Source of the DNA: Candidatus Sericytochromatia bacterium
GTDB taxonomy: Bacteria; Cyanobacteriota; Sericytochromatia; UBA7694; JACMQJ01
Reading direction: 5' to 3'
Assembly (NCBI GenBank): GCA_046328015.1
Contig: JAXLXH010000001.1
Location: 3,173,135-3,237,134 of the forward strand
DNA: 64,000 nt
This document shows, one piece after another, positions 57,154-57,209 of the stretch; position 1 is the stretch's first letter, and each line of letters starts with the position of its first letter. The notes below the pieces were generated by a model. The model ran no database searches. It was not told the DNA's origin and was given only the letters and a program-made list of their open reading frames with translations. The translations under genes were made by a program, and so were the position numbers.

Positions 57154-57209
57154 TTTATTTTCAAATCATAGTTAATCACCTAAATCATACGTAAATAAAA
57201 ATTCAGACT
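57154..57209 (-). promoter_or_regulatory. conserved leader/promoter repeat copy a (iteron-like AAATCATAnnT units) upstream of P1
   Basis: ttttattttcaaatcatagttaatcacctaaatcatacgtaaat...attcagact; near-identical copies at 60860-60917 and 62203-62259. Confidence 0.55.

Follow-up and report, generated by a model that had tools for sequence, protein, structure and literature searches.

Three near-identical leaders that recur upstream of minus-strand genes in a 64-kb stretch of the chromosome of a Candidatus Sericytochromatia bacterium (Cyanobacteriota; contig JAXLXH010000001.1; the whole 64,000-nucleotide stretch is called the window here) belong to an apparently undescribed family of ~45-bp intergenic DNA modules. 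Each module is made up of a GTCTGAAC box at one end and four TGATT boxes that start 11, 9, and 10 bp apart and thus fall on one face of the helix. The family is found mainly in contigs of uncultivated tailed phages and also in Bacteroidia genomes. We tentatively read the module as an array of binding sites for a DNA-binding regulator, that is, as a control module, and we give this reading a probability of about 0.45.

A preliminary description of the window had reported three repeated leaders before minus-strand starts. These leaders are real, and their positions were essentially right. The 35-mer CAAATCATAGTTAATCACCTAAATCATACGTAAAT has exactly three matches in the window, at 57162–57196, 60869–60903, and 62212–62246 (+ strand), and none in 100 dinucleotide-preserving shuffles of it. 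A repeat search of the window returned a three-copy family of 72 nt at 90–100% identity, and neither a script nor a profile search detected a further leader copy in the 64 kb. The modules (~45 nt each, minus strand) occupy 57163–57208 (copy 1), 60870–60915 (copy 2), and 62213–62258 (copy 3). All three are co-oriented and lie in the sense of the gene that follows: each leader copy ends 33–38 nt upstream of a minus-strand ATG (57123, 60830, and 62178). The preceding stop codon is 22–25 nt away from copies 1 and 2 and 97 nt away from copy 3.

On the gene-sense strand, the module reads AGTCTGAAC-TATGATTT-ACG-TATGATTT-AGG-TGATT-AAC-TATGATTT. Three phased direct repeats had been counted initially; the phasing holds, but the number becomes four TGATT boxes plus one GTCTGAAC box. 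Copy 2 has the GTCTGAAC box and all four TGATT boxes, while copy 1 has a GTCTGAAT box, a degenerate first box (GTCTGAATTTTTATTT), and three TGATT boxes. No GTCTGAAC-type box was found on the opposite strand anywhere in the window. The likeness of copy 3 to copies 1 and 2 starts abruptly at AGTCTGAAC and runs for ~85–90 nt, as far as the start codon. On the outer side, all three copies share the same sharp GTCTGAAC edge while their three flanks differ, and the 45-nt core is far better kept than the AT-rich tail (copies 2 and 3 have one mismatch in 48). These tails form the remainders of the leaders, all on the minus strand. The first (57124–57162), as read from the sequence, is AT-rich, extends to the ATG of a 337-amino-acid gene, and holds a AAATAAAA..TTTTATTT palindrome and an AAGGA ribosome-binding-like site. 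The second (60831–60869) extends to the ATG of a truncated 95-codon fragment, and the third (62179–62212) to the ATG (62178) of an 88-amino-acid open reading frame (ORF). A short-read Logan contig (L001, SRR26348422) that carries an identical copy of the recombinase gene adjoining copy 3 has its 3′ end inside this module copy. A repeat that breaks the assembly graph would produce such an end, which independently supports that the repeat is real in the source population.

Copies 1 and 2 form the right edge of one 325-bp duplication (56885–57209 = 60592–60916), and there are therefore only two independent instances of the leader in the window. The right edge of the duplication is the outer edge of the module. 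Duplication copy A (56885–57209) holds the leader and the 5′ part of the 337-amino-acid gene. Only the first ~80 codons of this gene are duplicated, and module copy 2 therefore heads just the 95-codon fragment (60543–60830), the truncated ORF that duplication copy B (60592–60916) creates. Copy B also ends a DUF952 gene (60263–60610, + strand): the last six codons and the stop codon of this gene come from the duplicated segment, and the rearrangement thus replaced its native 3′ end. The leader had been said to stand in front of each paralogue operon. The copies do precede gene starts, but the gene behind copy 2 is a duplicate cut short, and what follows copy 3 is not a demonstrable paralogue operon. 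Over ~240 nt of coding sequence the two duplication copies differ at one position, while box 1 of module copy 1 has three substitutions. Relative to module copy 2 (60870–60915), box 1 of module copy 1 (57163–57208) has changed from AACTATGATTT to AATTTTTATTT. This difference could reflect a local inactivation or a patch that gene conversion carried over from copy 3 to copy 2.

We searched for relatives of the leader in two ways. A degenerate pattern run over species-representative genomes and metagenomes returned mostly simple repeats, and three loci that share bases left unspecified in the pattern. One of these, in a Bacteroidia genome (L004, AAATCATAAAAAATCACTGAAATCATACGAAAATCACAGTTCAGACA), agrees with the window at 39 of 47 positions and spaces its boxes identically; locus L013 has the same layout as L004 and the window. 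An exact-pattern scan of species-representative genomes gave 3 matches among those listed, one by chance. A search of IMG/VR with the pattern GTCTGAACNNTGATTN{3,6}TGATT then returned 36 stretches and brought the total to 51 distinct matches, the loci of the degenerate search included. The matches are strongly clustered, and fewer than ~10 would be expected by chance for an assumed (unmeasured) collection size of ~6e10 bases.

The family consensus is (T)GTCTGAAC(T/C)nTGATT-n4-TGATT-n3-4-GAT-n3-CTATGATT. Boxes 3 and 4 are kept across ~50 sequences from phage contigs and Bacteroidia genomes even though the pattern left them unspecified, and most members have a T before GTCTGAAC, which produces a TG terminus. 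A profile built from 48 non-window members scored copy 2 at 27.2 bits (E = 1.6e-7) and copy 3 at 25.8 bits (E = 4.2e-7), against a best score of 9.2 bits in 50 shuffled windows. This statistic is circular in part, since the window had supplied the pattern used for retrieval. The independent evidence for the family is the clustering of the matches together with the conserved unspecified columns. Copy 1 fits the family profile weakly (8.3 bits, E = 0.14) because of the three substitutions in its box 1. In blastn searches, a window copy (86 bp) had no convincing match in collections of cultured phages and plasmids (best E 0.2), and the 47-nt family consensus matched nothing in plasmids and phages only at chance level (E 0.9). 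A literature check that was far from exhaustive found no description of the module; the bare motif led only to Illumina adapter sequences, which share GTTCAGAC, and nothing relevant was found on intergenic repeats of Bacteroidetes phages. RNA-guided transcription by dCas12f-sigmaE (PMC13472631) was considered and is unrelated to the module.

In the phages, the module is a multi-copy intergenic element. A 26,354-bp contig (IMGVR_UViG_3300023179_000445) contains 15 copies, all on one strand, and other contigs contain 2–7. The phage contexts are structural operons (sheath/tube, terminase-portal-tape measure, and protease regions), and the closest cultured relatives of these phages all infect Bacteroidota, namely Flavobacterium, Bacteroides, Porphyromonas, and Winogradskyella. 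Flavobacterium phage fF4, the closest cultured relative of one element-bearing group (terminase 44% identical), is without the element.

To describe the placement, we compared 70 distinct members with random positions. Only 19% of the members fall within an ORF of at least 60 amino acids, versus 79% of random positions. The end of a same-strand ORF falls within −8 to +30 nt of the GTCTGAAC end in 31% (versus 4.7%), and its stop codon is often the TGA inside GTCTGA. The start of an opposite-strand ORF lies 0–6 nt from the GTCTGAAC end (GTTCAGAC-A-ATG) in 14% (versus 1.1%). Where a gene follows box 4, its ATG is 13 to 84 nt away.

The orientation of the module relative to genes verified by PHROG matches is not constant. 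It is gene-sense in locus L108 and in the 15-copy phage, as in the window, and antisense in L146, L152, and L165. The gene-sense units of L108 and the 15-copy phage run on into a AAATAAAA(G/T)TTAAAAT-type leader, like AAATAAAATTTTTAAT in the window. In the 15-copy phage (L093/L159/L160), a GC-rich intergenic repeat, GGTTGCTTCGG...CTCGCAATGACGG, often stands directly after the module, which suggests that the intergenic regions of this phage are assembled from several repeat modules. When two phages of ~76% identity were compared (L152/L165), the element occupied different orthologous intergenic sites and the whole spacer was replaced; the comparison revealed no target-site duplication and no clean filled-versus-empty site. 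Some members form inverted doublets, palindromes of 88–116 nt with the GTCTGAAC ends outward. In L166 (5990–6510), three 88-nt doublets belong to a tandem repeat of 156 nt that separates phage head genes, and one doublet lies in L162 (4609–4725). Folded as DNA, the L166 and L162 doublets reach z-scores of −4.7 and −4.0.

Taken together, the one-face boxes, the intergenic placement, the many co-oriented phage copies, and the presence of both orientations argue for a protein-binding function at the DNA level; in particular, occurrence in both orientations relative to verified genes argues for a DNA-level rather than an RNA-level role. A core that stays near-identical before otherwise unrelated sequences, with diverged flanks, supports a control module. 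The idea of a regulator-binding array or cis-acting leader, already present in the preliminary description, is thus supported in outline, since the architecture recurs before unrelated genes in unrelated genomes. We infer that a sequence-specific DNA-binding protein would bind the one-face array and would control transcription around the module, which could act as an operator, as a stoperator-like roadblock, or as an activator site. In the Sericytochromatia genome, the module would head two transcription or translation units of an imported low-GC island.

A number of observations weigh against a regulator-binding array. No candidate for the binding protein was found: family scans detected no recognisable regulator on the island, and no protein is common to the island and the element-bearing loci. 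A consensus scan found no sigma-70 −35/−10 pair at 16–18-bp spacing inside any copy, and Bacteroidota −33/−7 motifs are neither inside the element nor at a constant position relative to it. Some members have a start codon only 1–4 nt from the GTCTGAAC end (13 of 78) or 13–20 nt from box 4, too close for a conventional promoter to fit in on that side. The statistics of family membership are, as noted, partly circular. Lastly, the inverted doublets and the presence or absence of the element in related phages fit a selfish mobile repeat equally well.

Such a selfish repeat is the main rival explanation, although we consider it rather unlikely. The 45-nt unit would then be one arm of an element like a miniature inverted-repeat transposable element (MITE) or a REPIN (a doublet of repetitive extragenic palindromic, REP, sequences), a solo terminal repeat with sub-terminal transposase-binding boxes that spreads into gene boundaries, any regulation being incidental. 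Repeats of this type, such as the Correia elements of Neisseria and REP sequences, are intergenic, abut gene ends, occur as singlets and inverted doublets, and can carry regulatory signals. The module resembles them in its location at gene ends, in its singlets and doublets, and in its variation between relatives. The outward-facing doublets of L166 and L162, the presence and absence at orthologous sites of the 76% identical phages, and the TG terminus all speak for a mobile repeat, as do the spread across phyla (a Cyanobacteriota island versus Bacteroidota phages and genomes) and the sharp common GTCTGAAC edge, which also bounds the 325-bp duplication. Yet the singlet is not palindromic, and the window copies are singlets without an inverted partner arm. 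Where related phages differ, the whole intergenic region was replaced, and neither a target-site duplication nor a clean empty site is seen. No associated transposase was found, the sole transposase of the window being of the IS4/Tn5 type and 9 kb away, and the copy number in the host segment is not high. Fifteen co-oriented singlets in one phage are also unlike cut-and-paste ends. Between a mobile repeat and a control module stands a further possibility, again a rather doubtful one: GTCTGAAC and the four TGATT boxes may be the recognition module of a regulator or of a recombination/transposition system, a portable control cassette that crosses phyla. The flush stop and start junctions, the singlets and doublets, and the gain and loss between phages would then reflect active mobility of promoterless genes together with their control module. 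As a kind, multi-copy regulatory or repeat modules of mobile DNA are already known; the architecture and the distribution are new.

The remaining alternatives place the function in a promoter, in RNA, or in recombination. Conserved intergenic motifs of ~45 nt that occur in many co-oriented copies in phage genomes are usually promoters, and the 15-copy contig fits this pattern. The module could itself be a promoter that an alternative sigma factor or phage-type transcription factor recognizes, with promoter elements as its boxes; in L152 and L100, nothing but the element separates an intrinsic terminator from the next start codon, and in the window box 4 (TATGAT) and the downstream TAAAAT are −10-like. 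We find this unlikely, as scan and inspection revealed no −35/−10 pair at usable spacing inside the element, the orientation to verified genes is opposite in different phages, and the members with a start codon 1–4 nt from the GTCTGAAC end would need leaderless mRNAs. Besides, L013 and L036 have a −7 box of the Bacteroidota type outside the element, 9 nt past its GTCTGAAC end. Action at the RNA level, as a translation-initiation enhancer, a processing site, or a Rho-loading (rut-like) AAUCA tract in a 5′ untranslated region or intercistronic RNA, seems distinctly improbable. It is favored by the fact that in the window and L108/L160 the element fills the space from stop to start, so it is probably transcribed. 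In addition, box 3 in the window (AGGTGAT) is Shine-Dalgarno-like and 6 nt before the ATG of box 4, and the complementary strand contains little G and has a UC dimer roughly every 10 nt. Against it, we found neither structure nor an Rfam family, both orientations relative to genes occur, mini-ORFs and frame relations are not conserved across the family, and the start codon lies anywhere from 13 to 84 nt away. Least credible of all is a role as crossover or accessory site of the TnpI-like tyrosine recombinase encoded next to copy 3, in which the direct repeats would recombine with one another and so excise or shuffle cassettes of genes. Copy 3 is indeed only 97 nt from the recombinase gene, and the three copies, all direct repeats, share one sharp edge. 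The TnpI of Tn4430, moreover, uses direct-repeat accessory motifs (DR1, DR2) beside its core site (PMC2847244). Against this stand the lack of an inverted box pair, and hence of a core site, in the leader, and the properties of the recombinase and its relatives described next.

The recombinase gene (62356–63204, minus strand, 282 amino acids) neighbors the module. Its product shares ~50% identity with proteins that bear the annotation TnpI resolvase of Bacillus transposons (B. cereus "TnP I resolvase"), and it scores below every NCBIfam equivalog cut-off (TIGR02249, 103 versus 265 bits; NF011946, 64 versus 435). Sixty nucleotides upstream of the gene is a perfect 9-4-9 inverted repeat, CAACATAAG-GTTA-CTTATGTTG (63265–63286), its probable cognate core site. 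This site overlaps the −35 (TTGCAT, 63263–63268) of a TTGCAT-17-TATAAT promoter with its −10 at 63239–63244, and looks like a solitary TnpI-type core site with autoregulation. The window contains no second copy of it, and the motif CAACATAAG occurs twice in the window, both times inside the site. No Tn3-family transposase was found near the recombinase. At 63246–63256, 8 nt from the core site, TGTCTGAAAC resembles a (T)GTCTGAAC box apart from an additional A. Neither L005 nor L006 has kept it, and chance alone would produce the heptamer TTCAGAC ~4–5 times per window, so the likeness is probably a coincidence.

Homologues of the recombinase allowed us to separate the leader from it. An 8-6-8/9-4-9 inverted repeat and a −10 box are kept upstream of recombinases of 62–63% identity (L005 and L006, metagenomic contigs), but the leader is absent from L005, L006, and L007 (62–73% identity); nor does the module occur in ~70 kb of related Cyanobacteriota contigs. 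Conversely, the element-bearing phage loci have no homologue of the window recombinase, one distant integrase aside. The resolution site of Tn4430 lies upstream of tnpI, whereas copy 3 is downstream of the recombinase gene. That site comprises two inverted motifs with a 4-bp spacer (IR1-IR2) and two direct accessory motifs (DR1-DR2) that share a 9-bp sequence with the core (PMC2847244). The leader, a neighbor of a TnpI-like gene, is like this internal resolution site in having direct repeats; it is unlike it in having direct repeats only, in sharing no motif (its TATGATT(T) boxes do not contain CAACATAAG), and in not being kept beside recombinase homologues. The leader is therefore independent of the recombinase, and we rejected the suggestion, made from the sequence initially, that it is the crossover site: it shows neither dyad nor fold.

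We also compared the module with other known element classes. The nearest promoter-like match, TTTACA-18-TATGAT (62307–62278), is upstream of copy 3, and the promoter consensus scan yielded as many matches in total as the shuffle expectation; the proposal of a shared sigma-70-type promoter thus found no support. Promoters of the extracytoplasmic-function type (−35 GAAC), the Bacteroidota −33/−7 motifs, NtcA, IHF, Fur, and LytTR sites, and a resolvase half-site were tried by hand, and none fits the family alignment. In Rfam scans, one tRNA alone reached the gathering score in the window, and nothing appeared at E ≤ 5 over 56900–63400. RNA folds of the window copies are not significant (z +0.4 to +1.1), and a structured RNA or riboswitch was rejected for want of an Rfam match and a significant fold. 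DNA folds of a window copy reached −2.6 and −2.1 kcal/mol (z −1.1 and −1.3). A relay of mini-ORFs through overlapping ATGA start/stop motifs was dropped since the frames are not conserved across the family. The repeats had further been called iteron-like. In the sense of replication they are not iterons: Pfam, NCBIfam, and PHROG scans of the window found no rep gene, origin features are lacking, and the boxes are of 5 nt at ~10-bp spacing, in three dispersed copies that each precede a gene. Iterons, by comparison, are tandem repeats of 17–22 bp to which Rep binds, gathered at a single origin beside a rep gene and an AT-rich unwinding element. An integron attC site was considered as well, because GTCTGAAC and GTTCAGAC resemble, without an exact consensus fit, the RYYYAAC and GTTRRRY boxes. 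The ends flush with a preceding stop and a following start codon and the doublets able to form hairpins are also attC-like. The window copies, however, are single arms without a single-strand hairpin, and the recombinase is not an integron integrase (103 bits versus the cut-off of 265), so attC was rejected for them.

The closest functional analogues are dispersed asymmetric phage operators (stoperators) and the arrays of regulators with one-turn periodicity. Stoperators of mycobacteriophages of the L5/Bxb1 type are single 13-bp sites for a known monomeric repressor (gp71) in actinobacteriophages. Stoperators and the phage copies of the module are alike in being asymmetric, on one strand, present in many copies per genome in short intergenic spaces, and different between related phages. 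The module differs in its ~45-bp length, its five boxes, its unrelated sequence, and an orientation to transcription that changes between phages. Boxes of the OmpR/PhoB type and Cox/Xis-type arrays consist of short direct repeats of 10–11-bp periodicity on one DNA face, beside or overlapping promoters. The module shares with them short direct repeats about one helical turn apart and departs from them in its four boxes with a distinct terminal GTCTGAAC box and in an unrecognised box sequence; scans of the window detected no gene for a response regulator, Cox, or Xis.

The window is chromosomal, as L19, MiaA, and tRNA-Leu are present, and has a GC content of ~24–29%. The homologues of its MiaA assign the genome to the Cyanobacteriota. 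Within it, the module is found only on a low-GC island, with stretches of 17–20% GC at 52–58 kb and 60.6–64 kb. The segment between them (58000–60600) has 27% GC and plus-strand genes, the DUF952 gene at its end; a 132-amino-acid TPR-like ORF in this segment (at 58409) has a paralogue at 49977–50492 (E = 1e-6). Downstream of copy 1 are four tandem genes without known relatives (52803–57123, minus strand; 358, 375, 367, and 337 amino acids), which are beta-propeller-like and of 17–20% GC. The genes at 55007–56110 and 56110–57123 are the sole demonstrable paralogues (BLASTP E = 8e-12), and a homologue search found no relative of the 337-amino-acid gene outside its own genome. Downstream of copy 3 is a two-gene unit (60939–62178, minus strand) of the 88-amino-acid ORF (61912–62178) and a 329-amino-acid ORF (60939–61928). 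The latter is also beta-propeller-like but not demonstrably paralogous (hhalign probability 8%). The ORFan proteins of the island belong to no Pfam, NCBIfam, PHROG, or PADLOC family, the integrase being the only PHROG or PADLOC match on the island.

Other repeats and genes lie around the island. A class D beta-lactamase gene (51683–52561, minus strand) adjoins it and reaches 444 bits with the OXA-2 family model (cut-off 590) and 286 bits with the general model of class D enzymes (cut-off 250). An unrelated second family of repeats, ~110–145 nt long (52608–52751, 15828–15955, and, inverted, 7342–7456) has a conserved hairpin, AAAAACACACTAGATTCCGTA..TACGGAAGGACAAAGTGTGTTTTT, that is REP- or terminator-like in look, and one of its copies is the left border of the tandem gene array. 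Further away are a gene for a MORN-repeat protein (44630–45220, + strand), with 69-nt tandem repeats in five in-register copies at 44710–45212, and the IS4/Tn5-type transposase gene (43001–44170, minus strand). A repeat of 45–57 nt (TATTCTTATTAGAGAATACCT...GGATACGGGGG) occurs three times around the transposase gene, in both orientations (41422–41478, 48673–48729, and 45810–45854). These repeats may be the ends of a transposable element or another small repeat family.

The module accounts for an identical leader among genes without known relatives and separates this leader from the neighboring recombinase. If it is a protein-binding control element, Bacteroidota phages would have a widespread regulatory signal that has apparently gone undescribed, and the presence of the module on a low-GC island of a non-photosynthetic relative of the Cyanobacteria would mark a horizontal transfer across phyla. 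The module would then also help to find the cognate factor and to annotate the transcription units of uncultivated phages.

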